Shown here: positions 11,046 to 43,323 of the stretch, piece by piece
How the letters are laid out: each line of letters starts with the position of its first letter
Position numbering within the stretch: the stretch's first letter is position 1
IMG/VR virus record: IMGVR_UViG_3300027747_001100
Span: 1-57,235 of that record
Direction: 5' to 3' (one strand)
Length of the DNA stretch: 57,235 nt
Source of the DNA: a virus
Taxonomy: Duplodnaviria; Caudoviricetes
Translations under genes and position numbers: made by a program
The notes under the pieces: model-generated
The model's database searches: none
The model's input: only the letters and a program-made list of their open reading frames with translations
What the model was told of the DNA's origin: nothing

Positions 11046-11055
11046 AGGAAAAATC

Positions 11056-11926: not shown

Positions 11927-12291
11927 TCTTAGAAACTATTATCGGTGCTTTAGTACCTGTTGGCATAGACGGAATTAAAAGTCTTATTGGCATGGTGACA
12001 GGCGGCGTTAAGCCTATTTCTGTTGATGAACAAATTAAACTAGACCAAAATGAAGTAAATAAGCTACAAGCTATCGCAGCATTAGACAATCCTTATGGCA
12101 CACCTAGTCAATGGGTTATTGATTTAAGAGCTTCTAGCCGCTACTTAGGCGCTTTATTTGTGATTGTTGTAGGTATTGGTACATTGTTCTTGTCTGTCAC
12201 TCCTGAAATACAAAGAATCGGTGTTGAAGCAGCAAACATTGCTTTTGGGTTTTTATTTGGCACTCGGATTATGGCTAATCTTAAAAAATGA
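11923..12291 (+). CDS. Putative holin
   Basis: Hydrophobic segments; WVIDLRASSRY and FGFLFGTR motifs; directly upstream of the endolysin. Confidence 0.65.
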   Translation: MILETIIGALVPVGIDGIKSLIGMVTGGVKPISVDEQIKLDQNEVNKLQAIAALDNPYGTPSQWVIDLRASSRYLGALFVIVVGIGTLFLSVTPEIQRIGVEAANIAFGFLFGTRIMANLKK

Positions 12292-12716: not shown

Positions 12717-12745
12717 TATAAAATGGCAAATAAAAGGGTTACCAA

Positions 12746-13378
12746 ATGACCGTTTCTTTCGTACTTACGTATGACTCGCTGACAACGACTGTGTTGCAGT
12801 ATTTAGAGCGCAACGATCCAGCAACTGTTAATCAGATACCTACTTTCATTACTATGTGCGAGTTTGAAATTGCACAGCAGATCAAGACTTTAGGTCAAAT
12901 GCAAGTTGTTGAAAGTACTATGCTAGCAGGCAATCCGGTTATACAGAAACCTGCTAGATGGCGTAAGACGGTATCATTTAATGTGGTTGTAGATGGGTCA
13001 CGAGAGCCGGTCTATTTACGGAAATATGAATACATTAAAGCCTATGCTCCGAATGCTTCAGTGACCGGGCAGCCCCTTTACTACGGGGATTATGACTATG
13101 AGCATTGGTTAGTTGGGCCAACGCCTGATAAAAATTACAATTTTGAAGTTTTATTTTATGAGCGTATTGCTCCTTTGTCTTCTGAAAACCAAACAAATTG
13201 GCTGACTCAGTATGCTCCAAATGCAATGCTATTTGGTACACTGTTACAAGCTATGCCATTCTTAAAGAATGATCAACGAGTTATATTCCAACAAAAATAT
13301 GATCAAGCTATGGCAATGCTGAAGACAGAAGACGTTACTCGCATTGGCGATCGCCAAGCAATTGCTATTGAAAGCTAA
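12746..13378 (+). CDS. Tail adaptor / tail tubular protein A-like
   Basis: IPTFITMCEFEI...GPTPDKNY...NWLTQYAPNAMLFGTLLQAMPFLKND pattern of podovirus adaptors. Confidence 0.7.
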   Translation: MTVSFVLTYDSLTTTVLQYLERNDPATVNQIPTFITMCEFEIAQQIKTLGQMQVVESTMLAGNPVIQKPARWRKTVSFNVVVDGSREPVYLRKYEYIKAYAPNASVTGQPLYYGDYDYEHWLVGPTPDKNYNFEVLFYERIAPLSSENQTNWLTQYAPNAMLFGTLLQAMPFLKNDQRVIFQQKYDQAMAMLKTEDVTRIGDRQAIAIES

Positions 13379-13380
13379 TT

Positions 13381-14610
13381 ATGACATCTTATGTAAACCC
13401 ATTCACAGGTCAAACAATTCAACCAAGTCAAGTTGGCTATGAAAAGCTAACAATTAGTACAGACACCATTCTTCAATGGCCTGTTAACGGTAACACAAAT
13501 GATGTAGTTGCTAACATTATTGAAGTTACTGCAACAGTTAATACAAATCTTAAACTAATTATGCCTGCTGCTACTCAAGTATCAGTAGGCCAAAGTGTTT
13601 TAGTTAAGAACATTGGTTCATACTCATTTACAGTCACAAAAAGTGACGGTACTACAATTATTTCAGTGGCTTCAGGTATTGCGCAATACATTTATCTTAC
13701 TGACAATACAACCATACCTGGAACTTGGTCAGTAGTTCAATTTGGTGCTGGAACAAGTTCTGCCAATGCTTCAGCTTTAGCAGGCTACGGATTAAAAGCA
13801 ATTGACACTACTTTAAATCAGTCATATAATCTTGTTGCTTACTATTCCAATACTGCTTTTACTGCCGCAAATAGAGCAGAATTTGCTGTTTGGCAAAGTG
13901 GTGTAGGTACATTTACTCTTCCGTCAGCTACAAGTGTAAGCAATAACTGGTTTATTAATATTCGTAATAATGGAACAGGCATTCTTACTATTGCTCCGGT
14001 AGGTTCTGACACTATTGACGGTGCTAGTAATAAACAGTTACAACTTACAGAGTCTTTAGTTCTTGTATCTGACGGTGCTGGAAAATTTAATTCGTTTGGT
14101 TATGGGCAATCTGCCACATTCTTTTTTACGCAATTAGCATTAGATCTTACAGGTCTTGGCCCTACTGTTACTCTTTCTTCAGCACAATCTGCCAATTTAA
14201 TTCAAGAATACTTTGGAACATTAGTAGCCAATACAACTATTATATTGCCACCTACAGTTCAGTTGTATACTGTTACAAACAATACTACAGGCGCATATAC
14301 TCTAAAGTTTTCAACAGGCACACTTGGCGCATCAACAGTACTTGTTGGACAAAACCAAACTTTAATTATTGTCTGTGATGGTACAAACGTCTATAATGCA
14401 AATAGTTCTGCAATTTCATCATTGCCTAGTTTAACTTTAAATCCAGGTTCTGCAGCTTCACCTTCATTAAATTTTTCAGGCAATACAACTACTGGCATAT
14501 ATCAACCGTCTAGTGGACAAATAGGCTTTTCATTAAACGGCACTAATAAAATGACATTAAGCTCAACCGGATTAGCTGTTATTAACGGCATTTCTGGAGG
14601 ATCATTTTGA
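13381..14610 (+). CDS. Tail structural protein
   Basis: Beta-repeat protein with xTLPxA...IxNxGxG modules; ends GGSF. Confidence 0.65.
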   Translation: MTSYVNPFTGQTIQPSQVGYEKLTISTDTILQWPVNGNTNDVVANIIEVTATVNTNLKLIMPAATQVSVGQSVLVKNIGSYSFTVTKSDGTTIISVASGIAQYIYLTDNTTIPGTWSVVQFGAGTSSANASALAGYGLKAIDTTLNQSYNLVAYYSNTAFTAANRAEFAVWQSGVGTFTLPSATSVSNNWFINIRNNGTGILTIAPVGSDTIDGASNKQLQLTESLVLVSDGAGKFNSFGYGQSATFFFTQLALDLTGLGPTVTLSSAQSANLIQEYFGTLVANTTIILPPTVQLYTVTNNTTGAYTLKFSTGTLGASTVLVGQNQTLIIVCDGTNVYNANSSAISSLPSLTLNPGSAASPSLNFSGNTTTGIYQPSSGQIGFSLNGTNKMTLSSTGLAVINGISGGSF

Positions 14611-25007: not shown

Positions 25008-25973
25008 ATGGCCAAACCTGCGTGTAGTGAGCAAGAGTTTATCGCATTATTTAAAGAACATAGGTCCCCTACGGCCGTAGCCAAAATATTGAATGTTGAT
25101 ACTAGAAGCGTCATAGCCCGTAGAAGAAATTTAGAGAAAAAACACGATATTGTGCTTGAATCAAATAATAATCGCGGTATTCCTCGATTTACCATTCCTG
25201 AAAGCAAGATTCGATGTGAGTATGAACTAATTGACGGTGTGATATTAGTAGGCTCTGATTGTCACTACAACCCAAACTATATCTCTACTGCACACAAAGC
25301 TTTTGTACACTTTGTAAAAAAATTAAAACCAAATATGGTCGTTTTAAATGGCGACTTATTTGATTTTGCACAAATTAGTGCGCATCACAGAATTGGTTAT
25401 CAACAACACCCAACTGTTAAGCAAGAACTAGAAGAAGTGCAAAACAGACTTGGCGATATTGAAAAAGTCAGACCTGCTGGATGTATATTGCATCGCACCA
25501 TTGGTAATCATGATCTTCGTTTTGATGGCAAACTGTCTAATGTTTTGCCTCAGTATGAAGGTGTAAAAGGTATGGCTTTAGCAGATCATTTGCCAGGCTG
25601 GTCATATAGCTGGTCAGTTGTAGTTAATAACAACACAATGATTAAACATCGTTGGCATAACGGTATTCATGCTGTGTACAACAACATACTTAAGGGCGGT
25701 ATGAGTATGGTTACAGGTCACCTACATTCTCTTAAAGTTACGCCATGGTCTAACTACAAAGGCGACATGTATGGTGTTGATACTGGAATGATGGCGGCAG
25801 TTAAAGATGACCAGTTTATGTACCATGAAGATTCTAGTGTTAACTGGAGAGCGGGGTTTGCAGTCCTTACTTATGTAAATGGTCATTTAATGCCGCCTGA
25901 GCTGGTTCAGGTCATTAGTGAAGATGACGGACTTGTGTTTTTTAGAGGTGAACTACATGAGATTAAACTCTGA
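25008..25973 (+). CDS. Calcineurin-like metallophosphoesterase with an N-terminal HTH-like segment
   Basis: SDCH, LNGDLFD, GNHD, HRWH and TGHLH motifs; N-terminal SPTAVAKILNVDTRSV. Confidence 0.85.
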   Translation: MAKPACSEQEFIALFKEHRSPTAVAKILNVDTRSVIARRRNLEKKHDIVLESNNNRGIPRFTIPESKIRCEYELIDGVILVGSDCHYNPNYISTAHKAFVHFVKKLKPNMVVLNGDLFDFAQISAHHRIGYQQHPTVKQELEEVQNRLGDIEKVRPAGCILHRTIGNHDLRFDGKLSNVLPQYEGVKGMALADHLPGWSYSWSVVVNNNTMIKHRWHNGIHAVYNNILKGGMSMVTGHLHSLKVTPWSNYKGDMYGVDTGMMAAVKDDQFMYHEDSSVNWRAGFAVLTYVNGHLMPPELVQVISEDDGLVFFRGELHEIKL

Positions 25974-26310
25974 AGCCATTAGCAATGCATATGCTAGTTT
26001 GTGCTGTATGTACCCGTTTACTAAATGGAAACTTCCTGTCCCTGAAGCAATTGACTTTGTAGTTGTTCATGACCCAGAAACAATGGGGACTTATTACTAT
26101 GATGATGGTGGAGACTATGAGCACACTATTACGATTAGTTCTGCTCGCTGTGGGCATTATTACACTATGCTCACAACTCTTTCACATGAAATGGTACATA
26201 TGAGTTTTTACCGTTGCAAAGGTGATAAATGGTCACAACACGGTAAAGCATTTAGAACTCGATGTAAGTTGATTGCAGATGAACTAGGCTTTGACGGCTT
26301 AGAACTTTAA
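25957..26310 (+). CDS. SprT-like zinc metalloprotease domain protein
   Basis: TTLSHEMVHM (HExxH) followed by HGKAF; ATG at 25957 follows SD gaggtg. Confidence 0.75.
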   Translation: MRLNSEAISNAYASLCCMYPFTKWKLPVPEAIDFVVVHDPETMGTYYYDDGGDYEHTITISSARCGHYYTMLTTLSHEMVHMSFYRCKGDKWSQHGKAFRTRCKLIADELGFDGLEL

Positions 26311-26423
26311 TTTCTGTGATAGTGGTCTTTTGGGTTATTAATCATTGATTTAATAAGATCATCTATACTAAAGAAGTATTGAATAACTCTTATGCCTTTA
26401 TGCGTGTAAATAGTAAAGCTCAT
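26307..26423 (-). CDS. Small hypothetical protein (38 aa)
   Basis: MSFTIYTHKGIRVIQYFFSIDDLIKSM...; ATGA overlap with the upstream gene. Confidence 0.5.
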   Translation of the reverse strand: MSFTIYTHKGIRVIQYFFSIDDLIKSMINNPKDHYHRN

Positions 26424-26566
26424 TTAGTGGCAATCAGATAAGCCCCATAATTTGCAAAAGCATATCCAGCATACATGCAACCCAGTCCAATATCTCCTTT
26501 AACCAATTGCTCAATACATATATATGCATAGATAAGCCCTGTAACAATAATTAGATTACTGCTCAT
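26420..26566 (-). CDS. Small membrane protein (48 aa)
   Basis: MSSNLIIVTGLIYAYICIEQLVKGDIGLGCMYAGYAFANYGAYLIATK; overlaps neighbours. Confidence 0.6.
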   Translation of the reverse strand: MSSNLIIVTGLIYAYICIEQLVKGDIGLGCMYAGYAFANYGAYLIATK

Positions 26567-26804
26567 CTTCTGCAATTAACTTTCTTGCTTTTCTAATCGT
26601 GGCTTTTTGATCTTCTGATAAGGGGAATGGAACAATTTCTTCGGATCCAATTCTATAGTCATTAAGTCCTTGGGTAATAAGACTAATAAGCCCATGTCGG
26701 ACGAGAGTTTCGAGACCTTCTTTATCGAAGTGAATGAGAGCATCAGCCGAACCATCTTTATTTTCCTTAATAATTTGTACAGAAATAGGCACTTTAGTCT
26801 CCAA
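26556..26804 (-). CDS. Hypothetical protein
   Basis: 82 aa with a KENKDGSADA motif; tiles with neighbouring genes. Confidence 0.6.
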   Translation of the reverse strand: METKVPISVQIIKENKDGSADALIHFDKEGLETLVRHGLISLITQGLNDYRIGSEEIVPFPLSEDQKATIRKARKLIAEDEQ

Positions 26805-26997
26805 AATGAATAGTAGGTTTTTCTAAGCAATCCAAAGCCCATGATAAGTATTGCTTAACTTCTTCAGGGCTTTCACCGCTCATTGTAGCCGTAGTGTGGC
26901 CTAGCGGCTTTCCAAGTTGATCATAATGAACTTCCCGAATCTCTACGTATGACTCATCCGAGTCACTCATATTAACTAGTCGAAGGTTCCATGTCAT
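26794..26997 (-). CDS. Hypothetical protein (WNxR...IxEVxYD phage family)
   Basis: MTWNLRLV...EIREVHYDQLGKP. Confidence 0.65.
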   Translation of the reverse strand: MTWNLRLVNMSDSDESYVEIREVHYDQLGKPLGHTTATMSGESPEEVKQYLSWALDCLEKPTIHFGD

Positions 26998-27160
26998 TTT
27001 TTATCTCCTGTTGTACGGTACTAACAGCATCATACACTTGTGAAGTTACAGACAACACATATTTAATGTCATTAGGCGTTAATTGTCCCATCAGTTGTAA
27101 TATTTTAACAACTGCAACATCATTGTCTAATGACATAGGCTTAACTATAGTTTCAATCAT
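26972..27160 (-). CDS. Hypothetical protein
   Basis: 62-aa ORF tiling the operon. Confidence 0.55.
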   Translation of the reverse strand: MIETIVKPMSLDNDVAVVKILQLMGQLTPNDIKYVLSVTSQVYDAVSTVQQEIKNDMEPSTS

Positions 27161-27162
27161 GA

Positions 27163-27414
27163 TTATATAATTTTCTTTTTGGTTAAAAATTTCTTATAAT
27201 GCATAACAGCTCTGTTTACAATTTGTTTCTGTAAATCGAGTTCTTTTGTTACAACTGCTTGGCTTTTTAGGCGAACTACAACAAGTCGTAAAGACTCTAT
27301 AGTTCGATCTATCCATCGAGGATGCTGCTCAATAAACTCATTAAACAAGTTTGTCCTGTCTTTAATGTTAAGCTTCTTTAGTTTTTCTTCTATGGCTGAC
27401 CAATGCTTAGACAT
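27163..27414 (-). CDS. Hypothetical basic helical protein, coupled to the ThyX-like gene
   Basis: Start MSKHWSAIEE at 27414 overlaps the ThyX-like stop; SD aggag upstream. Confidence 0.6.
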   Translation of the reverse strand: MSKHWSAIEEKLKKLNIKDRTNLFNEFIEQHPRWIDRTIESLRLVVVRLKSQAVVTKELDLQKQIVNRAVMHYKKFLTKKKII

Positions 27415-28336
27415 GAATATGCTCCTTTTTAATTGCATCAATTTGCTCTAATAAGTTCTTTCTAATGGTTTCATATATGTGACCACCTGGAAATTCATCA
27501 CGGCCGATCGGATGGTAAAACTGTTCTTCACACCAGTCAAAGTTGTCATTCTTAGCATTTGGTGGAAATATATTGGTTTTACCTTTGGCAGACTGACGCT
27601 GATAGAATGCATCAGGCTTACGGAAGTCCACAAGGCCTGATAAGAATGGATAGATCTTTAATACTTCTAACCACAACTTCATGGCAATAATATTATCTAC
27701 CGTTGTCTGAATTTGTTCATCACCTCGCATGATGCAGTAGCCAATAAGGTCTTTAATTGTACAGCGTACCATATAAAAGTGTTCAAAATTGCGAGGCATA
27801 ATAGTACGGGCATCAAGGCCGTGAACAAGACCACTATCAAGCATATCAACATACAAATCACGAGCCATTGTGGTAATTTCTCTATATCTGTTAGCAAATT
27901 CTTCATGTACCATAATCCCCGGTTTCATCATTACTCTGTCATCACGCATATCCCTATCACCATGAACTTGGGCCGCAAAACTAAACAGACGATGTCGTAT
28001 TAAATGAGTTGTGTCAATCATATCCATACCATTAACCGACCAAGTGATGTTGATCGTCTCCATGGCAGTAGGTAACAGTTCATACCTAAATAGCTCATCA
28101 ATGGTTTGGTCAATTTGGTCTTTAGGAAAGTCCCATTGAATCTTGTCATTCCATGTGTTTAATAGAAAGACTGATATTGTTTTACGAAACTCTGCAACGG
28201 TAGGTGCATGAACTATTTGTACATCAATGTTTGACAATTGATTTACAAACTCTATTGTCTTAGGTTTTTGCCCAAACTTAAGCTTTGTGTGCATTGGCTG
28301 GAGATTCTTAATCTCTGATTTATGTTTCTTAGGCAT
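27407..28336 (-). CDS. thyX: ThyX (FAD-dependent thymidylate synthase)-fold protein with a divergent active site
   Basis: HLIRHRLFSF core and DARTIMP motif identify the fold. The canonical SxRY is replaced by VHGDR, so activity is uncertain. Confidence 0.75.
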   Translation of the reverse strand: MPKKHKSEIKNLQPMHTKLKFGQKPKTIEFVNQLSNIDVQIVHAPTVAEFRKTISVFLLNTWNDKIQWDFPKDQIDQTIDELFRYELLPTAMETINITWSVNGMDMIDTTHLIRHRLFSFAAQVHGDRDMRDDRVMMKPGIMVHEEFANRYREITTMARDLYVDMLDSGLVHGLDARTIMPRNFEHFYMVRCTIKDLIGYCIMRGDEQIQTTVDNIIAMKLWLEVLKIYPFLSGLVDFRKPDAFYQRQSAKGKTNIFPPNAKNDNFDWCEEQFYHPIGRDEFPGGHIYETIRKNLLEQIDAIKKEHIHV

Positions 28337-28607
28337 TATTAATTTCCTTTAGTCGTAGTTCAACGAGTCTTGCATATCCGGCAATATCGGTCCAGCTATC
28401 GATGTGATCAGGACTTACAGCAAGTCTTGATAACTTCATAACAATCTTAGAGATGTATGTGGCATGAATCGGATGCATAGGCTCACCATGTTGCTTTAGG
28501 TGTCTATCCTTAATAGCTTCAAGTAAGTTAGCCTCAAGCTCAATACCTTCATAGAAATTGCCATATATATTGCCGCGCTCTTCTAGTACTTCATCAGTTG
28601 TAGTCAT
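28329..28607 (-). CDS. DUF6378-like small helical protein associated with phage nucleotide-metabolism loci
   Basis: LEERGNIYGNF...MKLSRL...HIDSWTDIAGYARL. Confidence 0.75.
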   Translation of the reverse strand: MTTTDEVLEERGNIYGNFYEGIELEANLLEAIKDRHLKQHGEPMHPIHATYISKIVMKLSRLAVSPDHIDSWTDIAGYARLVELRLKEINNA

Positions 28608-29116
28608 TTTGTCACCTTATAAGGTTGCAGTTTCTCTTCCATCTTTTCCATTCTTTTTGTGGTGTTTTTATAAACATCCACCATATAACCAGAATTTCCT
28701 AGACCGATTTCATTAGAAGAATATTGTAGGCATTGAAGTGCATCAGCATAGTGAACTATTAGTGCTTCAGGCGACTCATCATGATACATACGGCAGTAAT
28801 CTTTTACTTGTATAGGAAAGCCTTTATCAATCTCTTTTTCAGCTTCTAATAAAGCAGCTGCTACAGCTGGATAGTTCTTTTTAACCAGATGGTTTACATC
28901 CGAGATCTCCATTTCAGCCAAGTCATGGCATATGGCAATCTTAACCGCTGTATTGACATCAAAAGTATAGTCTTTGGACATCATTAAAACGCCTAGCGCC
29001 ACAAAGAAGCTATGCGTGGCAACAGATTCTTGATGCACAACTGGTTTCATACTGTAACGCTTAGTATGCTCCAATGAATAGCTACGCATAAAGAAATCCA
29101 TGTCTTCATTATTCAT
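28604..29116 (-). CDS. HD-domain 5'-deoxynucleotidase / dNTP hydrolase (YfbR/DatZ-like)
   Basis: KRY...ESVATHSF...CHDLAEMEISD...VKK...IVHYADALQ; start MNNEDMD at 29116 follows SD gagg. Confidence 0.85.
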   Translation of the reverse strand: MNNEDMDFFMRSYSLEHTKRYSMKPVVHQESVATHSFFVALGVLMMSKDYTFDVNTAVKIAICHDLAEMEISDVNHLVKKNYPAVAAALLEAEKEIDKGFPIQVKDYCRMYHDESPEALIVHYADALQCLQYSSNEIGLGNSGYMVDVYKNTTKRMEKMEEKLQPYKVTK

Positions 29117-29567
29117 AGTGCATCTCCTCTGACCCCCAATTACGGCGGTTAAACACACCTGTTTCACGAATCTCATACAAAGCTTTATCAAGTTCATGAT
29201 ATGATCTCACAACTGATCCTGATGCGGCCAATACAAGGTTAAACTTCTGACCAGGCTCTCCGGTTAGCCAAATATACACAATAGGAATACCCATAGCATA
29301 ACACCAGCCGGCCTCAAAGAACGTTCCAGGGTCTTTTCCATCAGTGATACACACCAATAAATTAGTGCAATTAAGAGCTGCAATATTCTCAGTAAGAATA
29401 CCTTCAGGAGTTGTGACACCGGGTTTAAATAAGCATTCATCTTTTGGGCTAAAGTATTTAAGACCGCGGTGTTCTAATATACACTTGGTCTCTTCTATTT
29501 GTTTAAGTTGTTGAGGGTTAAAAAAAGGACCGGCTAAATAAACATACGGATTCTTACCGATCATCAT
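29109..29567 (-). CDS. Nucleoside 2'-deoxyribosyltransferase family protein
   Basis: YLAGPFFN...FSP...DPGTFFEAGWCYAMGIPIV...FNLVL, with the catalytic Glu conserved. Confidence 0.85.
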   Translation of the reverse strand: MMIGKNPYVYLAGPFFNPQQLKQIEETKCILEHRGLKYFSPKDECLFKPGVTTPEGILTENIAALNCTNLLVCITDGKDPGTFFEAGWCYAMGIPIVYIWLTGEPGQKFNLVLAASGSVVRSYHELDKALYEIRETGVFNRRNWGSEEMHYE

Positions 29568-29758
29568 TTTTTCACCACCTTTTTATTCGTTGAGCCTAGT
29601 GGTCTGCCACGTTTCTTGGCTGGCGGCTCTAAATGCTTAAGAATCTTATTTAGTACACTTTCAATAGCGCTAAGCTTAAATGTAAGATCATCAACTGAAT
29701 CGTCTAATGTGTCAAGTCTAAGCTTAATTAAGTCTTTTTCTTCTTTAGTTATAAACAT
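29564..29758 (-). CDS. Small coiled-coil protein with an AT-hook-like KRGRPLGS tail
   Basis: KKRGRPLGSTNKK; strong SD aaggag. Confidence 0.7.
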   Translation of the reverse strand: MFITKEEKDLIKLRLDTLDDSVDDLTFKLSAIESVLNKILKHLEPPAKKRGRPLGSTNKKVVKK

Positions 29759-29775
29759 TTCCTTCTCCTTTAGTT

Positions 29776-29807
29776 AAGTAAACAACTACATTATACACAA
29801 GTAAACA
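29776..29807 (-). promoter_or_regulatory. Sigma70-type promoter (TG-n-TATAAT-like) flanked by two TGTTTACTT boxes, driving the NDT-HD-DUF6378-ThyX operon
   Basis: Minus strand reads TGTTTACTT-gtg-TATAAT-gtagt-TGTTTACTT. Confidence 0.6.
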
Positions 29808-29813
29808 TTACAT

Positions 29814-31181
29814 TTACTTATTTGCGTATTCTTTTATTGCTAGCATTAGTGACTGCTGAGTCTTATCTTTGGAATTAATAGCAGCAACAATTGCTTCATC
29901 AATCGTCTTCTTGGCAATGATTTGATGCACAACAATATTATTTCTTTGTCCTTGTCTCCACAATCTTCGAATAAACTGCTCAAAGATTTCTAATGACCAT
30001 GTATTACTAAACCAAATAACAGCATGACCAGCGCCTTGCAAATTAAGACCGTGGCCTGCTGACTGTGGATGAGCTAGTAATACAGGAGTGTATCCCATGT
30101 TCCATCTATTAATAATACCTGTCATCTTGTCACCAGACACACCAGAACCAATCACAGGGGCATCAGGAAAAAGCTTTTGTAGTCTTTCCAAGTCATGCTT
30201 AAAATGATAACCGATGATGCATGGTTGACCTGACAATTCCTCTACAATATCCGCTACTGCGGTTAGCTTTTCATCATGTATTTCTTGTGTGACTCTTTCT
30301 TCACCGTCTAAATAAATAGCGCCATTAGCAATTTGTTGGCATTTACCGACAGCAACTGCTGCATTCATAGCAGTAACTTGACCATTCTCGATGTCTATCA
30401 ATAACTTATCTTCTAAGTCTTTGTAAAACTTCATTGCTTTTTCAGGCAAATGCACATATACACGATTGTAGATTAGTTCTGGGAGATCCAAGTAATCCTG
30501 AGCTGACATCCGAAGAACTTTGTGTGCCAATGCTTCATGAATTTTTTCTTCTGCTCCGGCTTGTATTTGCCATGTATAACCACCGTAACCAGTCGGATAG
30601 AAGTAGTTAGTTCTAAAATGAGTAATGTACTTTCCAAATGTAGCCCCTCTATCAATAACTAATTGCGGCCCAAATATATCCATTAGACTATTTGGTGCAG
30701 GCGATCCTGTTAAGCCGAACCGCCTTTTAAACTGATCAAGCATTGGTGACAATGCTTTAAATCTTTGAGTTCGTGTATTTTTTAAATAACTAATCTCATC
30801 AACAACAAGCATGTCATATGGCATTTTGATGCCTAAACGTCTAAGAGTTGTGGACAACCATTGCAATCCTTCAAAATTAATAACATGAATTAATGAATTG
30901 TCATGCAGCTTTTTATCTTTTGTAGAACCGTGTAATACGCTGATTGTCATATCATTAAAGTTATCCCATTTCTGAATCTCTTCAGGCCAAACAGCATAGC
31001 ATGGTCGTAATGGTGCAAGAATTAATACTTTACTAATGGCATTTGCTGCTTTTAGAATCTTAATGGCTTCTAATGTAATAGAGGTTTTGCCAAGCCCTGG
31101 GTCAAGCCATAACTGACCTGATCCATTCTCAACTAAGAACTTAACCGCGTTTTGCTGATACTGATGCGGATTCCAGAGCAT
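29814..31181 (-). CDS. SNF2-family (SF2) helicase
   Basis: DPGLGKT, VVDEIS, LTGSPAPN, SAGHGLNLQ and RLWRQGQ motifs. Confidence 0.9.
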   Translation of the reverse strand: MLWNPHQYQQNAVKFLVENGSGQLWLDPGLGKTSITLEAIKILKAANAISKVLILAPLRPCYAVWPEEIQKWDNFNDMTISVLHGSTKDKKLHDNSLIHVINFEGLQWLSTTLRRLGIKMPYDMLVVDEISYLKNTRTQRFKALSPMLDQFKRRFGLTGSPAPNSLMDIFGPQLVIDRGATFGKYITHFRTNYFYPTGYGGYTWQIQAGAEEKIHEALAHKVLRMSAQDYLDLPELIYNRVYVHLPEKAMKFYKDLEDKLLIDIENGQVTAMNAAVAVGKCQQIANGAIYLDGEERVTQEIHDEKLTAVADIVEELSGQPCIIGYHFKHDLERLQKLFPDAPVIGSGVSGDKMTGIINRWNMGYTPVLLAHPQSAGHGLNLQGAGHAVIWFSNTWSLEIFEQFIRRLWRQGQRNNIVVHQIIAKKTIDEAIVAAINSKDKTQQSLMLAIKEYANK

Positions 31182-31449
31182 TCGTAATTTCCTCTTTTGT
31201 TCTTAGTATTAAGACTGTATGATTAAGTGATCTAAGCATTTCATGTATTAGTTTTTGACGTTCAGACACAATGCCTGTTAGCGTCTTAAGTTCCACCCAT
31301 AAAACTTTACCAAGCAAAATAACAACACGGTCAGGCCAACCTGTACTGAAACGCAAATGTAACTTAACTGCATTGAGCTTAAGCCTTTTAGCTTCTTTAC
31401 TAAAGTGCCTTTCAAGATCTCTCTCCAGAACTTTTTTTACCACTTGCAT
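31141..31449 (-). CDS. VRR-NUC domain nuclease
   Basis: ERDLE...GWPDRVV...WVELKT...SERQKLIHEML; exact start uncertain. Confidence 0.8.
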   Translation of the reverse strand: MQVVKKVLERDLERHFSKEAKRLKLNAVKLHLRFSTGWPDRVVILLGKVLWVELKTLTGIVSERQKLIHEMLRSLNHTVLILRTKEEITNALESASVSAKRG

Positions 31450-32078
31450 GGGCCACCGTTTGATTTGCGGTAGTGGCACCATTTGCATAGCATGGAAGGA
31501 TTGGGGGCAAACACTTTATCTTTTTCGATTGTACTAATTCTGTTTTTAAGCTGTATTTGTAAGACAGGTAGCTCTTTTCTGGTAAGTGTTTTATACTTAT
31601 CAGTTTTAGCAAGATCAATGAACTCAATAACATTTTCAACCTCTTCAATTTCAGGCATTGTTGACAAAATTACTGTAGAATAAACTGAAACTTGGTCTGT
31701 ATAGTCACGATGCTTACCTGATTTAAAGTCTAATACAGTGGCTTTGGTAGGCTCATCTTTAATAAATAAGTCGATAATGCCACGAAACATAGCAGATTTG
31801 TCATCAAACGGTACAGGTTCCCATTTATCAGTAACTGCAAATTCCATTTCAGACTGTGCGTTTACTTTAATCCAGTTATCTAGTTTGTCTGATAAGTACT
31901 GAATCTCTTTAGATAAAAGATTTAATCCGCCTTTAAGAACTGTTTCAATCTCTGAATGTAATTGCTTACCACGATTAGCTGCTTCTCCAGATGGCTCAGG
32001 GATTTTATCTATTCGGCCAAGCTTATACTTCAGTGGGCACTGCTCATAAGTCTTTATTGCCGAATAAGAATACGTCAT
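31437..32078 (-). CDS. PD-(D/E)XK (RecB/Cas4-like) exonuclease
   Basis: SYS...QCP...RGKQLH...E...RGIIDL...DFKSGK...CKWCHY...C with an Fe-S-type Cys pattern. Confidence 0.85.
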   Translation of the reverse strand: MTYSYSAIKTYEQCPLKYKLGRIDKIPEPSGEAANRGKQLHSEIETVLKGGLNLLSKEIQYLSDKLDNWIKVNAQSEMEFAVTDKWEPVPFDDKSAMFRGIIDLFIKDEPTKATVLDFKSGKHRDYTDQVSVYSTVILSTMPEIEEVENVIEFIDLAKTDKYKTLTRKELPVLQIQLKNRISTIEKDKVFAPNPSMLCKWCHYRKSNGGPCKW

Positions 32079-35026: not shown

Positions 35027-35401
35027 TTAGTTGCGTGATGCACGTACAGATAATTCCCAGACTTCTGATGTTGAGGTGCCTGGGATTCCCTCTCCTGAGC
35101 TTAACCGGTCTTTAAAAGCGGTTGAGCTAAGTCTTTTGTGTAGCAAATCAAAGCTTCTTGTTTCTGCTATATACTTATAAAATGCATCCCAATCAGTAAT
35201 AATAGGGTGCGTCTTTTTATTCATTGCAACTGAATGACCGTCTTCTGTAGCTGCTTTGGTAGTACCTACCTCGGACATAGCATGCATAATATCGGCTTCA
35301 AGTCTTGCAGCTTCTTTAGATAAATCACTGTCTTTAGCTGATAGTTCAGTGCGTTGACGTTTAACATCAACAAGTTTATTAATTAGTTCAGTAAGATTCA
35401 T
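35027..35401 (-). CDS. Conserved replication-module hypothetical protein
   Basis: Coiled coil plus ITDWDAFYKYI...FDLLHKRLS...IPG. Confidence 0.65.
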   Translation of the reverse strand: MNLTELINKLVDVKRQRTELSAKDSDLSKEAARLEADIMHAMSEVGTTKAATEDGHSVAMNKKTHPIITDWDAFYKYIAETRSFDLLHKRLSSTAFKDRLSSGEGIPGTSTSEVWELSVRASRN

Positions 35402-35847
35402 AGTAAGTCCGTTAAAGAGTAGTAGTTAGTTTTGACTTGTGCTTCTTTAAACATTTCATTGGCTAATTCAAACGACTTTTGCCAACGTTCTGGTTGATAT
35501 GACAATGACACATGGCGCTTAATGCCTGCTTGTATAGCCATGGCTGCACATTCAGAACAGCATTGCATAGGAAACGTATAAAGTGTGCAATCTTTTAATG
35601 ATTGCTTAGCAAATAAAATTGCATTACGCTCAGCATGTAAAGTGATTGCATACTTTAGTTCACGGTTGTTTAAGCGTGACTCTGTATCTGCAACGCCTTT
35701 AGGAAAGCCGTTAAAGCCTACACTAACAATTTCATTGTCTGCATTTACAATCACTGCGCCACATTGAGTTGATGGGTCTTTTGACCATGATGCCACAACC
35801 TTAGCCATGTCAAGATAGCGCTTATTCCATTTAAGTTCGTTATGCAT
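35398..35847 (-). CDS. dCMP deaminase
   Basis: SKDPSTQCGAVIV...GFNGFP...HAERNA...CSEC zinc motifs. Confidence 0.9.
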   Translation of the reverse strand: MHNELKWNKRYLDMAKVVASWSKDPSTQCGAVIVNADNEIVSVGFNGFPKGVADTESRLNNRELKYAITLHAERNAILFAKQSLKDCTLYTFPMQCCSECAAMAIQAGIKRHVSLSYQPERWQKSFELANEMFKEAQVKTNYYSLTDLL

Positions 35848-36391: not shown

Positions 36392-36832
36392 TTATCTTGT
36401 AGTGTTTAAAAGCAATAAAGCGATGTGGTCTTCAGGGCCTGTCCAGCCTTCTGGCTTCTGAGCATCTTGCTTATGACCTCTACGAGTGGTACCAGGAACC
36501 TTCTGCATGTTCGCCATGTGTACGATTTCAAGGATCTTAGGTAACGGTAATCCCATATGATGAGCACACCCCATGGCCACATAAGATAAGTCTGCTAATG
36601 CATCAGCTGCCGCCACCAGATCACCGTCTTCATGCGCTTTTAATAGCTCGGATAGTTCTTCCATAAGAAACCTGGCATAAAAACTAATGTCCTGAGGTTC
36701 TAAAAGCTGAGACTTGTGGTTTACAGGTAAGTTTAGTTTGGTTCTAAATTCACGAACTTTATCAAACATTGCTTGATCAGTCAATGAGACGCGTTGTGCA
36801 TCTATGCGGTCTTCAGTTGTAAAAGTAGTCAT
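36392..36832 (-). CDS. All-alpha NTP pyrophosphohydrolase (MazG / dimeric dUTPase-like)
   Basis: LMEELSEL...ADALADLSYV...VHMANMQK...KPEGWTGP. Confidence 0.8.
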   Translation of the reverse strand: MTTFTTEDRIDAQRVSLTDQAMFDKVREFRTKLNLPVNHKSQLLEPQDISFYARFLMEELSELLKAHEDGDLVAAADALADLSYVAMGCAHHMGLPLPKILEIVHMANMQKVPGTTRRGHKQDAQKPEGWTGPEDHIALLLLNTTR

Positions 36833-37937: not shown

Positions 37938-38088
37938 TTTTTCTCCACCAATGAATTGTTTTACGACGACCATACTTTAAACGAAGCTTAAATGCATGAT
38001 AATAGTTAAAAATCTTAATGACTGTTTTGTGTTGACGACGCATTGATGCCATACGTGTTTTAGCATACCGCGTTCTAATTATTCCCAT
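37930..38088 (-). CDS. Small very basic protein (52 aa)
   Basis: MGIIRTRYAKTRMASMRRQHK...GRRKTIHWWRKNV; fills the gap and overlaps both neighbours. Confidence 0.45.
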   Translation of the reverse strand: MGIIRTRYAKTRMASMRRQHKTVIKIFNYYHAFKLRLKYGRRKTIHWWRKNV

Positions 38089-38471
38089 GGAAACACCAAC
38101 CAATTGTCTAAGCGCATTTTCTTACCGTAAAAATCTAATTGATCTAATCCAACATTGTGATACAACACAGCAAACTGAGTCATAGGGTTAACTTGTTTTA
38201 AGTCTTGCATTGTTTTACCGGTGTCATAGATCTCGTCTATAATCAGTGTTTTCTCAGCTAATGAAATAGGCAATATAGCATCTTCTTTAGTGATAGCCAT
38301 CATAGGTAGTTCAAGCCGATGTGATAACATTACAGCAGGAATAAGACCGCCTCTTGTAACACCTGCAATCATTTCAAACTTTTCGCCTGAATCTTTAATT
38401 TGCTTTTGTATAACATCTAAAAGCTCATTAATTTCAGTCCAACTAACAAATGTTTTATTCTTTTTAGTCAT
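38079..38471 (-). CDS. Type I phosphoribosyltransferase (xanthine/guanine PRT-like)
   Basis: AGVTRGGLIPA...LIIDEIYDTGKT (PRPP-binding motif)...WLVFPWE. Confidence 0.85.
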   Translation of the reverse strand: MTKKNKTFVSWTEINELLDVIQKQIKDSGEKFEMIAGVTRGGLIPAVMLSHRLELPMMAITKEDAILPISLAEKTLIIDEIYDTGKTMQDLKQVNPMTQFAVLYHNVGLDQLDFYGKKMRLDNWLVFPWE

Positions 38472-39866: not shown

Positions 39867-40163
39867 ATGCTAAAAACTCAACTTCAAAGCCTTACAGATA
39901 TTACCCTCTATGATCAACTCGGTTTTATTAAAGCCGAAATTGCTCACCTTCAGGACCAAGAAAAAGCTATTAAAGAGCAGATCATCGCTCAAGGCTTCGG
40001 TTCATACAGCGGTCAGATGTTTGATGTAACAGTATCCTCAACAACCCGTGACACATTGGACATGGAAGCAGTTAGAGCTAAGCTCTCACCTCAGTTTATC
40101 AGATCACACACAAAAACAACCACTTACCCAACAGTTCGCGTAACAGCACGGAAAGGCAACTAA
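39867..40163 (+). CDS. Hypothetical early protein
   Basis: MLKTQLQSL...DQLGFIKAEIAHL; ATG at 39867 follows SD aagga. Confidence 0.65.
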   Translation: MLKTQLQSLTDITLYDQLGFIKAEIAHLQDQEKAIKEQIIAQGFGSYSGQMFDVTVSSTTRDTLDMEAVRAKLSPQFIRSHTKTTTYPTVRVTARKGN

Positions 40164-40165
40164 TC

Positions 40166-41149
40166 ATGGCACACGAAATCGATATGTCAAACGGACAAGC
40201 TAACATGGCATACGTGGGGGAAACCCCATGGCATGGCCTTGGTCAACAACTTAAGGCAGGCGCCACAATCGAGCAATGGCGTAAAGCAGCCGGTATGAAT
40301 TTCTCTATTTATACCAGCCCAGTACAGTTCGAAAGCCCTGAAGCGGTCGGTGACCCAATGACCTTTGACGGTCATAATGTTCTATACCGCTCAGACACCA
40401 AGGTTCCACTTGCAGTGGTTTCTAATAAGTATCAGGTAGTTCAACCTAAAGAAGTACTAGAGTTTTACCGTGACCTTACGGCTGGTGCCGGCTTTAGCTT
40501 AGAAACAGCCGGTGTTCTTAAAGGCGGTAAAAAGTACTGGGCATTGGCATCCATTGGCAAAGAAGCCAAAATTCTTGATGACCAGATCAAAGGCTACCTC
40601 CTGCTAGGCTCAGCATGTGATGGCTCAATGGCTACTACAGCTATGTTTACCTCAATCCGCGTAGTGTGCAACAACACACTTGGCTTTGCAGTGTCCGAGG
40701 CTGATAACGGTACTGCCAAAGCAGTGGTTCGTATTAACCACCGCACCTCATTCGATGAAGCCAAAGTTAAGGCACAACTAGGCCTAGCCGCCAACAGCTG
40801 GGATTCTTTCCTTTACAATGTAAACGTTTGGTCCAAGACCAAGGTCGATCTGGTACAGGCACAGGCCTACTTTGATAAGGTTGCCTCATACACAACCACA
40901 GAAGGCGAGGAAAGAGTATCAGATCGTACATCCAAGTACCTCATGGAACTATTTGCTGGCGGTGGCAAAGGCAGTGATTTAAAATCGGCTAATGGAACAG
41001 CATGGGGCTTAATCAATGCAGTTACTGAGTTTGTTGACCATCACCGTGGTCGTTCTAATGATGTTCGTATCGACCGTGCTTGGTTTGGTGACGGCATTAA
41101 AACGAAAGAGCTCGCAACTGATTTAGCCAATGATCTTTGCTTTGCATGA
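40166..41149 (+). CDS. DUF932 family phage/plasmid protein
   Basis: MAHEID...MAYVGETPWHGLG...YQVVQP...ETAGVLKGGKKYW...RVVCNNTL...TAWGLINAVTEFVDH. Confidence 0.85.
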   Translation: MAHEIDMSNGQANMAYVGETPWHGLGQQLKAGATIEQWRKAAGMNFSIYTSPVQFESPEAVGDPMTFDGHNVLYRSDTKVPLAVVSNKYQVVQPKEVLEFYRDLTAGAGFSLETAGVLKGGKKYWALASIGKEAKILDDQIKGYLLLGSACDGSMATTAMFTSIRVVCNNTLGFAVSEADNGTAKAVVRINHRTSFDEAKVKAQLGLAANSWDSFLYNVNVWSKTKVDLVQAQAYFDKVASYTTTEGEERVSDRTSKYLMELFAGGGKGSDLKSANGTAWGLINAVTEFVDHHRGRSNDVRIDRAWFGDGIKTKELATDLANDLCFA

Positions 41150-41193
41150 TATGATGTTCTTCCTGCCGTCACTTATGTAGTGGCGGCACTAAA

Positions 41194-41225
41194 TAAAAAA
41201 ATCCCCGAACGTTAGTTCGGGGATT
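41194..41225. terminator. Perfect 11-bp inverted repeat with an upstream A-run (minus-strand or bidirectional terminator-like)
   Basis: aatccccgaac-gtta-gttcggggatt preceded by aaaaaa; a second hairpin lies at 41164-41188. Confidence 0.6.
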
Positions 41226-41253
41226 CAAGGTGTTTCACGTAAAGGAAATGGAA

Positions 41254-43323
41254 ATGTCATCAGGGTTTGCATCCCATACAACACAACCAGAACAATTATA
41301 CTACAATGATCTTAAAAACAGAAAAATCACTGATGAAGATGCAAAAATCTTAGGCTTAGAGTTACTGAATCCAGAGCAAACACAAGCTCTGATCGGACAC
41401 ACTAAAGACTGGGCAATCAAGATACCGTATTTTGATTTGCAAGGGCAAGCTACTGGCTTTACTCGTATTCGGCTTTTAATGCCAAAAACTAAGATGAAGT
41501 ATAGCCAGCGTAGGTCTAGTGGCGCTCACATCTATTTTCCGCCAACCATCAATTGGCAGTCATACATTAAAGATGTTAGATTACCGCTGATTATTACAGA
41601 AGGTGAGTTTAAAAGCTGGGCTATCGTAAAAGCAGTGTCTAATGAAGGCCTGAACCATGCTGTGATTGGCTTAGCAGGCGTTACTAGTTGGGGTGATAAG
41701 GCCAATGAAACGCCATTGCATAAAGACCTGATGGAGATCATGTGGAAAAAGACTACCGGTTACGAAACAGTTAACCGCCAAGTCTACGTTCTATTTGACT
41801 ATGACGGTAAAGAAGATAATGGCGAGCCTAATGAACAAGTTGCTATAGCAGAAGCACAATTAGCCAAGACACTGAGAGGACTAGGCGCTGATGTGCATCT
41901 ATGCCGCATCGGTAAATATGCTAATGCTCAATACGATAAATACGCTATTGATGACCACCTGAATGACGGCAAAACATTAGGTGAAGTGTTACTAAATGCT
42001 GAGCAATTAAGTGTCATGGGAATAGCCGATCTTAAAACGCTACTCTACGAATTTAGAACACAATATGCATTCTTTAATGGTGATGTGATTCGCTTACATG
42101 ATGGCCATGGGTTTGCATACAGTAAAGCTAAGATCGATGCCGGCCATTTGCGCTATCAATTTACCAATGCACAAGGTCAAGTTAAGAATACAGACTTGTT
42201 GGATGAGTATAAAGCTTGGCCAAAGAAGCTAAACCTAAAAGCTATTGATGTATACCCTGAGTACCAAGGTTATACCATCACACCAGATGGTGCATACAAT
42301 CTACTTAAAGATTGGCGCTATGCACCTATGGACGGTGATGTGCAGGCTTACTTAGACTTTTGTAAGTACTTTTTTCGCGACCTACCAGAGTTTGAGGATT
42401 TCTTTCACAACTGGGTAGCACAGATAGTTCAACAACCTTGGAAAAAGAACTTTACATCCATTATCTTTGCATCTAGTTTAGAAGGTGTAGGTAAATCAGC
42501 TTTGGCTGAGTTTATAGCTACTATGATGGGCATCGGCCTTAACTGGCCTGCAGGCATTTGTGGCCCTGATGAAATCTTTAAAGAAAAGAATGATGTATTA
42601 AGTGGCAAACTACTGGTAGTGGTTAACGAACCTAGCAGTGACCGTGACGACCACCAGAAGACACTCAAACACCTAGTCACATCCGACTTTATTAACATTG
42701 ATAAAAAGTACGGCCTGAAGTACACGACTAGGAATTACATTAATCTAATTCTGACCACCAATGCTTCATATGTAACCAAAATGAGCAAAAATAGCCGTCG
42801 CGATGCTATTTACATGCCTAAAACGCTGACACGCGAAGAAGGATCTATGCGATACAAAACTCTAGAACACTGGGCTAAGCATGAACACGGTTATTCTAAA
42901 GTTCTAAACTGGTACATGTGTAGAAATCTAGAAGACTATAGTCCAACAGCAGCCGCACCAACATCGGCACACAAGGACGAAGCAGTTAAGATGAGCCAAA
43001 CCAGTATTGAAGACTTTGCTGATGAGCTATATGAGATTATCGAGCATGAAATGCAAGGCATTGCAGCATTTCGGCCTAACCAGATAGAGATATTAGCAGA
43101 AGCTCTAAGCGGTCTAAAGAACGTAAAAGCCAAAGCTTTGGTCTATGCATTTAGCAAAATAGGTGAGGTTGACATGTCAGCAGTAGTTAAGATAGACGGT
43201 GTTGCTACTAGATTTCATGTGTATGTAACAAAGAGTGGAAGTTACAAAAGTAAAGTTACAAAATTGCATGATGTGATTTTAGCGACCAAAGACATGGTGA
43301 ATAAGAGGCTCAGCCTTGGATAA
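41254..43323 (+). CDS. Primase-helicase (Toprim DUF3854-like plus SF3/DUF5906-like NTPase)
   Basis: IITEGEFK, IGLAGVTSW, FDYD and IDD Toprim motifs; EGVGKS Walker A; VVVNE; INIDKKY; ILTTN. Start could be 41230, 41248 or 41254. Confidence 0.85.
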   Translation: MSSGFASHTTQPEQLYYNDLKNRKITDEDAKILGLELLNPEQTQALIGHTKDWAIKIPYFDLQGQATGFTRIRLLMPKTKMKYSQRRSSGAHIYFPPTINWQSYIKDVRLPLIITEGEFKSWAIVKAVSNEGLNHAVIGLAGVTSWGDKANETPLHKDLMEIMWKKTTGYETVNRQVYVLFDYDGKEDNGEPNEQVAIAEAQLAKTLRGLGADVHLCRIGKYANAQYDKYAIDDHLNDGKTLGEVLLNAEQLSVMGIADLKTLLYEFRTQYAFFNGDVIRLHDGHGFAYSKAKIDAGHLRYQFTNAQGQVKNTDLLDEYKAWPKKLNLKAIDVYPEYQGYTITPDGAYNLLKDWRYAPMDGDVQAYLDFCKYFFRDLPEFEDFFHNWVAQIVQQPWKKNFTSIIFASSLEGVGKSALAEFIATMMGIGLNWPAGICGPDEIFKEKNDVLSGKLLVVVNEPSSDRDDHQKTLKHLVTSDFINIDKKYGLKYTTRNYINLILTTNASYVTKMSKNSRRDAIYMPKTLTREEGSMRYKTLEHWAKHEHGYSKVLNWYMCRNLEDYSPTAAAPTSAHKDEAVKMSQTSIEDFADELYEIIEHEMQGIAAFRPNQIEILAEALSGLKNVKAKALVYAFSKIGEVDMSAVVKIDGVATRFHVYVTKSGSYKSKVTKLHDVILATKDMVNKRLSLG

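Follow-up and report, generated by a model that had tools for sequence, protein, structure and literature searches.

A divergent ThyX-fold enzyme with an exchanged substrate pocket, linked to nucleoside 2-deoxyribosyltransferase in phage genomes

The DNA analysed here, which we call the window, comprises an entire IMG/VR virus record (IMGVR_UViG_3300027747_001100) of 57,235 bases with a GC content of about 0.41, estimated to be 93% complete. It belongs to a tailed phage, with a T4-type large terminase, capsid matches to Mu gpT-like and Phage_capsid_4 proteins and SU10-adaptor proteins, and its minus strand carries a replication block with a family A DNA polymerase, a PD-(D/E)XK nuclease and an SNF2 helicase. 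On the same strand lie genes for a nucleoside 2-deoxyribosyltransferase (NDT), an HD phosphohydrolase, a small DUF6378 protein and a protein with the fold of flavin-dependent thymidylate synthase (ThyX) in which much of the substrate pocket has been exchanged (Table 1). We tentatively read this ThyX-like protein as a hydroxymethylase of deoxyuridine monophosphate (dUMP) that would work in a thymidine-replacement cassette.

The ThyX fold, proposed in the original prediction, is borne out by profile, model and structure comparisons. The Pfam Thy1 (PF02511) score of 42.3 bits clears the cut-off of 24.8, with the match covering profile positions 36-189 of 191; the NCBIfam thyX equivalog TIGR02170 gives 30.9 bits and does not reach its cut-off of 87.9, and no PHROGs family was matched. 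The AlphaFold2 (AF2) model, built with 96 sequences, has a mean predicted local distance difference test score (pLDDT) of 96.6, and Foldseek against the Protein Data Bank (PDB) returns the ThyX fold (E 2.8e-10). The best VIA match is Mycobacterium tuberculosis (Mtb) ThyX (3gwc_B; Z 16.8, root-mean-square deviation 3.0 Å, 209 aligned residues, 16% identity), and the top 47 PDB entries are all ThyX or PolB (Z 13.1-16.8), the first unrelated entry standing at Z 5.0. Canonical ThyX enzymes (EC 2.1.1.148; Mtb 3GWC and 2AF6, Thermotoga maritima 1O26) have the fold in common with the window protein at Z 15-16.8 over about 200 aligned residues and about 3.0 Å, with 13-18% identity. PolB (4P5A/4P5B), a ThyX paralogue of polyoxin biosynthesis that methylates UMP or dUMP at C5, matches the window model at Z 15.2-15.7 and serves as a precedent for neofunctionalisation of the fold (PMC5954106); it belongs to Streptomyces secondary metabolism, whereas the proteins described here are from phages, with other changed residues and another gene context. 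All strings quoted in the original prediction are present in the open reading frame (ORF), including DARTIMP (residues 175-181), TIKDLIGYCIMR (193-204) and IQTTVD (209-214). The Pfam match stops at residue 229, leaving about 80 further residues where roughly 70 had been claimed; this C-terminal extension (about 78 aa), an addition relative to canonical ThyX, is conserved among related proteins, its P259 is invariant in 18 sequences, and its pLDDT is mostly above 95.

Table 1. Features of the ThyX-like locus and of other genes in the window.
Feature	Position	Strand	Evidence and remarks
ThyX-like gene, 309 aa, ATG start	27407..28336	-	Pfam Thy1, AF2, VIA
Rewired ThyX motif TTHLIRHRLFSFAAQVHGDRD, residues 109-129 (T-H-L-I-RHR-xx-S-F-A-A-Q-V-H-G-D-R-D)	27950..28012	-	
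LLPTAME, residues 87-93 of ThyX-like protein	28058..28078	-	
DAR (R177)...P and ...MR (R204) elements	27725..27814	-	Both retained
C-terminal extension, clade-specific, residues 232-309	27410..27643	-	Past Pfam match
DUF6378 small protein, 92 aa	28329..28607	-	Pfam DUF6378 33.2 bits; stop overlaps ThyX-like start by 8 nt
HD phosphohydrolase, YfbR/HDDC2/OxsA type (5'-deoxynucleotidase-like)	28604..29197	-	HD_3 57.8, YfbR-like 56.4 bits; PHROG 7076
NDT homologue, 152 aa	29109..29567	-	Pfam Nuc_deoxyrib_tr 48.9 bits
dCMP deaminase	35398..35847	-	Pfam dCMP_cyt_deam_1 71.9 bits; 7 kb off, looser set member
MazG/HisE-type all-alpha NTP pyrophosphatase	36392..36832	-	Pfam PRA-PH 55.3 bits; looser set member
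Phosphoribosyltransferase, 130 aa, xanthine/hypoxanthine-guanine phosphoribosyltransferase kin	38079-38471	-	NCBIfam PRK09177 66.5 bits, below cut-off 138
DUF932 protein, then 697-aa DUF3854/DUF5906 primase-helicase-like protein	40166-43323	+	DUF932 205 bits

The pocket was mapped by counting residues in 83 members of the clade to which the window protein belongs and in 14 canonical sequences. The ThyX motif is worded RHRxxSxxxxSxR(Y); in the window protein the RHR and the first Ser are kept, and the second Ser, the Arg and the Tyr are lost, S-x-R-Y of canonical enzymes becoming C/V-x-G-D. HMMER aligns residues 92-166 to Mtb ThyX 73-147 without a gap, and since this alignment needs no insertion, S-Q-R-Y has been exchanged in place for V-H-G-D. 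The original prediction had therefore seen the loss of SxRY correctly, but its HGDR register and one-residue insertion are not real; R128 lies one position past the canonical Tyr. Its other observation at this motif, that the Gln before RHR is now His, agrees with the counts at position 111 (Mtb E92), which is His in 81/83 clade members and Gln or Glu in canonical sequences. At the neighbouring position 110 (Mtb H91), Thr in 71/83 faces His in 12/14, and at 106 (Mtb R87) the clade has a hydrophobic residue, Met in the window, for an Arg found in 13/14. Further exchanges are seen at 122 (Mtb Q103; Ala in 78/83, canonical Gln in 12/14), 124 (Mtb S105; Cys in 66/83 with Val in the window, canonical Ser in 14/14), 126 (Mtb R107; Gly in 58 and Ala in 25 of 83, canonical Arg in 14/14), 127 (Mtb Y108; Asp in 82/83, canonical Tyr in 12 and His in 2) and 128 (Mtb V109; Arg in 55 and Lys in 23 of 83, canonical Val in 9/14), and H125 stands at Mtb Q106. 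Position 131 is Arg in 43/83, P89 is invariant (83/83), and the His of RHR itself varies within the clade (His 64, Tyr 12, Ser 3, Asn 2). On the folate side, all 14 canonical sequences have a His five residues ahead of the conserved Glu, which we take to be T. maritima H53 and to stack on the folate pterin; at this position (88), 75/83 clade members have Leu. Cys124 as a nucleophile was considered and ruled out, as the window protein and its near relatives carry Val, Thr, Ala or Leu there.

Much of the core is nonetheless retained, as had been claimed for RHR and DARxxxP: R114 (Mtb R95) in 83/83 clade members and 14/14 canonical sequences, R116, the second Arg of RHR, in 79/83, the conserved Glu as E93, and D175-A176-R177, in which R177 (Mtb R172) is Arg in 81/83 and 13/14. 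The change proposed for the downstream NxRxLxxFxxLR...AQxEIR region holds for its second half, which reads IQxxxDN in the clade, but the final Arg of LR is retained as R204 (Mtb R199; 81/83 and 14/14). In Mtb ThyX, dUMP is contacted at O2/N3 by R199, at O4 by R107, at the 3'-OH by R95 and Q103, and at the phosphate by R87, Q106, R172 and R107 (PMC9571937). R95, R172 and R199 of this set are kept, and R87, Q103, Q106 and R107 are replaced by M106, A122, H125 and G126. In the L159 lineage (9126-10076) the clade motif is one residue short, A-Q-C-S-D-R-D against A-Q-C-T-G-D-R-D, so the Gly/Ala position is deletable while the Asp-Arg pair is kept.

These exchanges define a lineage. The protein matched 150 of 1.84 billion representative proteins at E<=0.001 and 218 entries of a 90%-clustered collection, the best 120 of which, at 63-98% identity, all come from metagenomes. 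A tblastn search of 50,697 phage records returned Geobacillus phage GR1 alone for the ThyX-like protein (36% identity, E 1e-49), and megablast of window positions 26000-31500 against cultured phages gave no match. In a FastTree tree of 146 rows, from which rows shorter than 230 aa and a Streptococcus phage protein were omitted, the proteins that bear the exchanged signature cluster in a single group of 89 rows with Shimodaira-Hasegawa-like support of 100. Its sister group, B, has C-T-G-D but keeps R87, the His, the Gln and Q103. Among 36 close genes, Nei-Gojobori ratios of non-synonymous to synonymous substitution (dN/dS) range from 0.006 to 0.119 with a median of 0.057, from the 68 of 630 pairs with 0.1<dS<1.5. 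The pocket pattern is conserved down to about 30% identity, far beyond chance. The tree and these ratios thus reveal neither unconserved substitutions nor dN/dS near 1, and the claim of selection rather than decay stands: judged by them, the clade is a divergent phage offshoot of flavin-dependent thymidylate synthase under strong purifying selection. Two representatives have extra parts. In P0143 (551 aa) the ThyX-like domain is preceded by about 262 residues, including a D-N-D stretch, that resemble viral GT-2 glycosyltransferase clusters (ESM Atlas 0.96-0.97, fewer than 170 shared features), a possible glycosyltransferase-ThyX-like fusion that we regard as a lead only; P0122 has additional C-terminal sequence that resembles an HNH-type insertion.

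The ThyX-like enzyme was found in at least 106 IMG/VR loci and its NDT neighbour in at least 240. Gene context was surveyed in 80 of the 106, comprising 36 distant loci (ThyX-like identity 33-45%) and 44 close ones, many of them genome fragments, and partners were counted with the window's own proteins as queries; an NDT-seeded set of 80 of the 240 relatives consists mostly of close kin of the window and overlaps the first set, so that the two are not independent. NDT accompanies the ThyX-like gene in 35/36 distant and 41/44 close loci, HD in 32/36 and 43/44, and DUF6378 in 17/36 and 37/44, whereas the SNF2 helicase (4/36), DNA polymerase A (6/36) and dCMP (deoxycytidine monophosphate) deaminase (2/36 with the window query) are infrequent in the distant loci. 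ORF clustering of 49 sources gives 49 ThyX-like, 46 NDT, 45 HD and 24 DUF6378 genes. The arrangement NDT-HD-small gene-ThyX-like, or else ThyX-like-NDT-HD, is seen repeatedly, in at least 5 different genome layouts, which differ in their polymerase (family A in some, Pol III alpha-type in others). Four distant loci without HD have instead a fusion of dUTPase_2 and NT5C 5'-deoxynucleotidase, and in these, to judge from the families, HD has given way to an unrelated enzyme with equivalent activity. In distant loci, the link with NDT and a deoxynucleotidase sets the clade apart from canonical ThyX, and this fixed partnership of a ThyX-like enzyme with NDT is new.

Other genes join the set in particular lineages. 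NDT ORFs reach 307-348 aa in seven loci, and the one tested, L073, encodes a fusion of a P-loop kinase (phrog_761 'thymidylate kinase', E 3.6e-10) with NDT (6evs, E 1.9e-13). Homologues of a P-loop kinase of phage GR1 adjoin the ThyX-like gene in four loci, between HD and the ThyX-like gene in L047, L058 and L061 and just downstream of it in L076. MazG-like genes (clusters c11 and c12) stand beside the ThyX-like gene in 20/49 loci, and dCMP deaminase is adjacent to it in loci of the L035-L041, L040 and L067 types. Group B genes likewise have NDT and a MazG-like gene as neighbours in 4/6 close loci, without HD. Such strict linkage to NDT and a nucleotidase, with an NDT-fused kinase that could return products to the nucleotide pool, would suit an enzyme that methylates deoxyuridine, deoxycytidine or a free base, with Asp127 as a catalytic base in the place of the substrate phosphate; three of four phosphate ligands (Mtb R87, Q106 and R107) and the 3'-OH ligand Q103 are lost as well. 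The remaining phosphate ligand, R177, is nevertheless Arg in 81/83, and the new basic residues at 128 (Arg or Lys in 78/83) and 131 (Arg in 43/83) would roughly keep the positive charge at the phosphate site, so that we consider action on nucleosides or bases highly improbable.

Phage GR1 (OK896991.1, a complete genome) is the best match for the window NDT (E 4e-23) and HD (E 5e-11), and it holds NDT, HD and its clade member together. It has this one Thy1 gene, and no ThyA-family gene was found in its complete genome. Between the HD and ThyX-like genes lie the P-loop kinase (145 aa) and a 459-aa homologue of T-even-type alpha-glucosyltransferase (25303-26682; phrog_2888, E 6e-53), which has 35% identity to gp313 of Bacillus phage G and 22.5% (E 8e-6) to the enzyme of a T4-like coliphage, and for which neither a PDB sequence match nor a Pfam match was found. 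At 40057-41289, Amidoligase_2 (96.7 bits) and GGACT (76.8 bits) genes are adjacent; amidoligases are associated with thymidine-hypermodification clusters (PMC8989533). The glucosyltransferase homologue and the Amidoligase_2/GGACT pair suggest that GR1 DNA may be hypermodified. Searches with the glucosyltransferase and nitroreductase of GR1 gave no homologue in the window or in any fetched locus, most of these loci being genome parts, and no paper on GR1 was found in the open full-text literature.

The nitroreductase-family protein, a flavin reductase, is encoded directly upstream of the GR1 ThyX-like gene and could point to quite different roles, such as flavin-dependent redox chemistry on a pyrimidine in which no carbon is transferred, a subunit for regulation or nucleotide binding, or a remnant without catalytic function. 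The replacement of the His before E93 by Leu in 75/83 and the variable His of RHR would also fit. Very strong purifying selection, invariant charged pocket residues and constant linkage to nucleotide enzymes argue instead for an enzyme acting on nucleotides, and we hold roles of this kind to be improbable.

A second group of cultured phages shares the neighbourhood. In Streptococcus phage vB_SagM-GXN1, NDT and HD precede a 411-aa protein that matches Thy1 weakly and has 40.5% identity (E 5e-85) to SP15_130 of Bacillus phage SP-15. SP-15 also carries NDT, three genes upstream of SP15_130. Its thymine is hypermodified, about half of it being replaced (PMC5977210), and the same source hypothesises that gp130 is a hydroxymethyl-dUMP synthase and the phage's other Thy1 protein the true thymidylate synthase (PMC5977210). 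Yersinia phage YerA41, with modified DNA that defied sequencing (PMC7354516), has a weak relative of the SP15_130-type protein (22%, E 6e-6), and in Cobetia phage Carin-5 a pyrophosphatase gene lies directly upstream of such a protein. Together with proteins of Vibrio phages, these are likewise long and divergent phage members of the Thy1 family, but they measure about 411-413 aa against about 300 aa, form a separate lineage, and the function of gp130 is itself hypothesised. The window protein matched no member of this group by tblastn at E<=1e-3, and the SP-15 protein gives a weak fold match to the window model (11% identity, E 1.5e-5). The GXN1 record (L088, PQ819873.1) has 40 annotated features in 176 kb, and over about 5.6 kb (8839-14462) there is no ORF of 70 aa or more in any frame, which is odd or a problem of sequence quality.

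A search for thymidylate synthases in 25 virus records with the ThyX-like gene found a canonical-scoring ThyX (131-182 bits, 210-250 aa) in four (G010, G014, G015 and G021), three of which have R-H-R...S-x-S-x-x-S-x-R-Y intact, and a ThyA-family gene above the cut-off in two, full-length in G012 (226 bits) and divergent in G015 (53.6-53.8 bits). Altogether 5/25 records hold an additional canonical ThyX or ThyA-family gene. The records G010 (46 kb) and G014 (42 kb) are complete, and in L157 and L159 the genes NDT-HD-ThyX-like-MazG-dCMP deaminase-canonical ThyX-ligase form one same-strand block. Two synthase-type genes in genomes of about 40-57 kb, twice in one block, argue against simple redundancy. 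The ThyA-family protein of G015 (L083, 17810-18718, minus strand; 302 aa, phrog_5131, E 5.9e-34) directly adjoins the ThyX-like gene, giving that phage three synthase-type genes; loci of the L066-L082 type have in the same slot, downstream of the ThyX-like gene, a 196-aa protein with a faint ThyA-like match (phrog_160, E 9e-5).

Considerable circumstantial evidence therefore exists for a changed role, and it seems fairly probable that the enzyme is something other than a plain synthase of thymidine monophosphate (dTMP). The best single reading is a flavin-dependent dUMP hydroxymethylase, whose product would be 5-hydroxymethyl-dUMP or a close 5-substituted dUMP, in a thymidine-replacement cassette, to which we assign a probability of about 0.38. 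It is preferred because the uracil-side arginines are kept, the folate and O4 side is replaced, and the only thymidylate synthase-type gene of GR1 lies beside a glucosyltransferase homologue. The protein would then be a working, selected and re-specialised flavoenzyme that presumably binds flavin adenine dinucleotide (FAD) and still stacks a uracil deoxynucleotide on it, with R204 at N3/O2, R177 at the phosphate and the RHR arginines in place. One-carbon transfer to C5 would be retained, while the residues that close on O4, the 3'-OH, the phosphate and the folate would have given way to the invariant set L88-P89, T110-H111, A122 and G126-D127-R128. In known ThyX the exocyclic methylene is reduced by FADH2 (PMC8989533); here, we infer, it may be hydrated rather than reduced, possibly with the help of D127.

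The partner genes would fit this picture. The classical 5-hydroxymethyl-deoxyuridine pathway comprises a dUMP hydroxymethylase homologous to thymidylate synthase, a phage dTTPase, a dTMPase, a dCMP deaminase yielding dUMP, and a deoxynucleoside monophosphate (dNMP) kinase (PMC8989533), and each of these parts has a family-level counterpart in the cassette, NDT being extra, although partner specificities are predictions. A MazG-like or dUTPase_2 pyrophosphatase could take the role of the dTTPase, and HD, or NT5C where HD is missing, that of the dTMPase; dCMP deaminase would supply dUMP, the P-loop kinase of several lineages would act as dNMP kinase, and NDT would move deoxyribose from the discarded nucleoside to other bases. 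The partner set thereby resembles that of the ThyA-family hydroxymethylases (SPO1-type dUMP hydroxymethylase, T4 gp42) in the way it would work, yet those enzymes have an unrelated fold and chemistry, with a cysteine nucleophile and no flavin, and NDT is not in the classical pathway. More broadly, we put at even odds a portable phage base-replacement cassette on the ThyX fold, in which a C5-methylase or hydroxymethylase of dUMP or dCMP would act with a pyrophosphatase and a deoxynucleotidase that clear the canonical nucleotide, NDT recycling deoxyribose, and sometimes a kinase or glycosyltransferase.

Several observations weigh against a dUMP hydroxymethylase. The ThyX-like gene is the sole thymidylate synthase-like gene in 20/25 records, and dCMP deaminase occurs in 12/25, none of which has a canonical thymidylate synthase, a pattern that plain dTMP synthesis fits equally well. 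A cassette for clearing thymidine triphosphate (dTTP) and dTMP is hard to square with the canonical ThyX that shares its block in L157 and L159; because of that ThyX, a hydroxymethylase would require partial replacement there, as in SP-15. The loss of the O4-contacting Arg next to an invariant Asp suits cytosine at least as well as uracil. GR1 encodes a thymidine kinase, and SP-15 and GXN1 represent another ThyX-like lineage, linked to the window by shared NDT/HD context and not by orthology. In the window, no glycosyltransferase, amidoligase or other decorating enzyme was found. Palindromic 4-mers are rare there (mean z -2.29, 9/16 below -2, against +0.15 and 28% below -2 for non-palindromes), as they are in 7/9 related loci, a weak hint that the DNA may not be blanket-protected from restriction.

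Much of this would be expected of an ordinary, very divergent ThyX that converts dUMP to dTMP, the cassette being a salvage funnel to thymidylate in an AT-rich phage. The funnel would take deoxynucleoside triphosphates to dNMP (MazG-like), dNMP to deoxynucleosides (HD), deoxynucleosides plus uracil to deoxyuridine (NDT), deoxyuridine to dUMP (kinase), dCMP to dUMP (deaminase) and dUMP to dTMP (ThyX-like), so that all cassette parts have a role, and R128 or its Lys equivalent and R131 would stand in for Mtb R107 and R87. The retained R204, R177, R114 and R116, the adjacent dCMP deaminase of several lineages, the sole-synthase counts, the GC content of the window and the ordinary DNA that palindrome avoidance suggests would all agree with it, and 'thymidylate synthase (FAD)' is the JGI source name of some members. 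It accounts less well for six to eight exchanged and clade-invariant substrate or folate contacts, for the score far below the thyX equivalog cut-off, for the second synthase in 5/25 small genomes, and for GR1, whose clade member is the sole candidate maker of a hydroxymethyl group for the glucosyltransferase homologue. We regard an ordinary ThyX as somewhat less likely than the dUMP hydroxymethylase, but as its strongest competitor. The changed substrate or chemistry first proposed for the window protein accordingly draws support from coexisting synthases, the NDT/deoxynucleotidase cassette and the GR1 context, and is partly offset by the 20/25 records that plain dTMP synthesis would also explain.

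The exchange at O4 also invites a flavin-dependent C5-hydroxymethylase or methylase of dCMP, a ThyX-fold counterpart of T4 gp42. Asp127 would accept a hydrogen bond from the cytosine N4 amino group and R204 would bind N3/O2, while the MazG-like protein, HD and NDT would clear dCTP, dCMP and deoxycytidine. Position 126 is Gly or Ala in 83/83 where canonical sequences have Arg in 14/14, D127 is present in 82/83, and a coexisting canonical synthase would be natural. The T4 set consists of dCTPase, dCMP hydroxymethylase, dCMP deaminase and thymidylate synthase, which the L157/L159 block mirrors, and the GR1 glucosyltransferase homologue is distant kin of the T4-like phage alpha-glucosyltransferase. 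On the other side, we know of no hydroxymethylcytosine pathway that contains a 5'-deoxynucleotidase, and the NT5C and dUTPase_2 families are named for dUMP/dTMP and dUTP. Known ThyX chemistry uses an N3-deprotonated uracil held by an Arg (PMC12004180), and that Arg is retained here. GGCC and CCGG are moreover under-represented in the window (z -6.2 and -5.5), and overall a dCMP enzyme seems unlikely to us.

The neighbouring genes in the window can be described further. Its NDT has true NDT 6evs as nearest solved relative (E 4.7e-7), and across 20 sequences Y10, N61, D79 and E85 never vary, while N110 and the C-terminal Glu are almost fully conserved; by these residues, it keeps the catalytic pattern of true transferases. 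The HD protein matches 2cqz, 1xx7 and HDDC2 in the PDB. Its longest ORF shares 89 nt with the 3' end of the NDT gene, and translation probably begins at an internal Met, given that homologues measure about 170-180 aa (range 166-199 aa) and that the Pfam match begins at residue 35-42. The DUF6378 model (pLDDT 95.6) is a four-helix bundle with no PDB sequence match and no Foldseek PDB match at E<=0.001, and the Atlas returned DUF6378 clusters alone. A role for it as a MazG-type pyrophosphatase was dropped, since hhalign found it unrelated to the MazG-like clusters; among DUF6378, c31, c35 and those clusters, only c11 and c12 are related (98%). No recognisable kinase was found in the window. The purine-salvage phosphoribosyltransferase gene lies in the same early block, and the DUF932 and primase-helicase-like genes sit where the minus-strand block switches to a plus-strand block. 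Against Markov expectation the window has 223 CATG (314 expected), 3 GGTACC (15), 6 GGCGCC (14) and 112 GGCC (155), and GATC is not under-represented.

To our knowledge, no ThyX-family enzyme has been shown to make a product other than thymidylate or ribothymidylate. Nor did we find such a product in the open full-text literature, where the sole suggestion is the hypothesis on SP-15 gp130. As the carrier GR1 is in culture, the NDT partnership is directly testable. Even if the enzyme is an ordinary thymidylate synthase, its cassette would represent a hitherto undescribed way for phages to channel any deoxynucleotide to thymidylate. If it is instead a hydroxymethylase on the ThyX fold, the first step towards hypermodified phage DNA would have been invented twice, independently, and the enzyme would be a candidate source of the DNA modifications of SP-15-type phages and possibly of those of the YerA41 type. 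It would also follow that many auxiliary metabolic genes labelled 'thyX' in aquatic viromes are mis-annotated. If the broader reading of a base-replacement cassette is true, many uncultured aquatic phages would hold non-canonical pyrimidines behind the label 'thymidylate synthase'.

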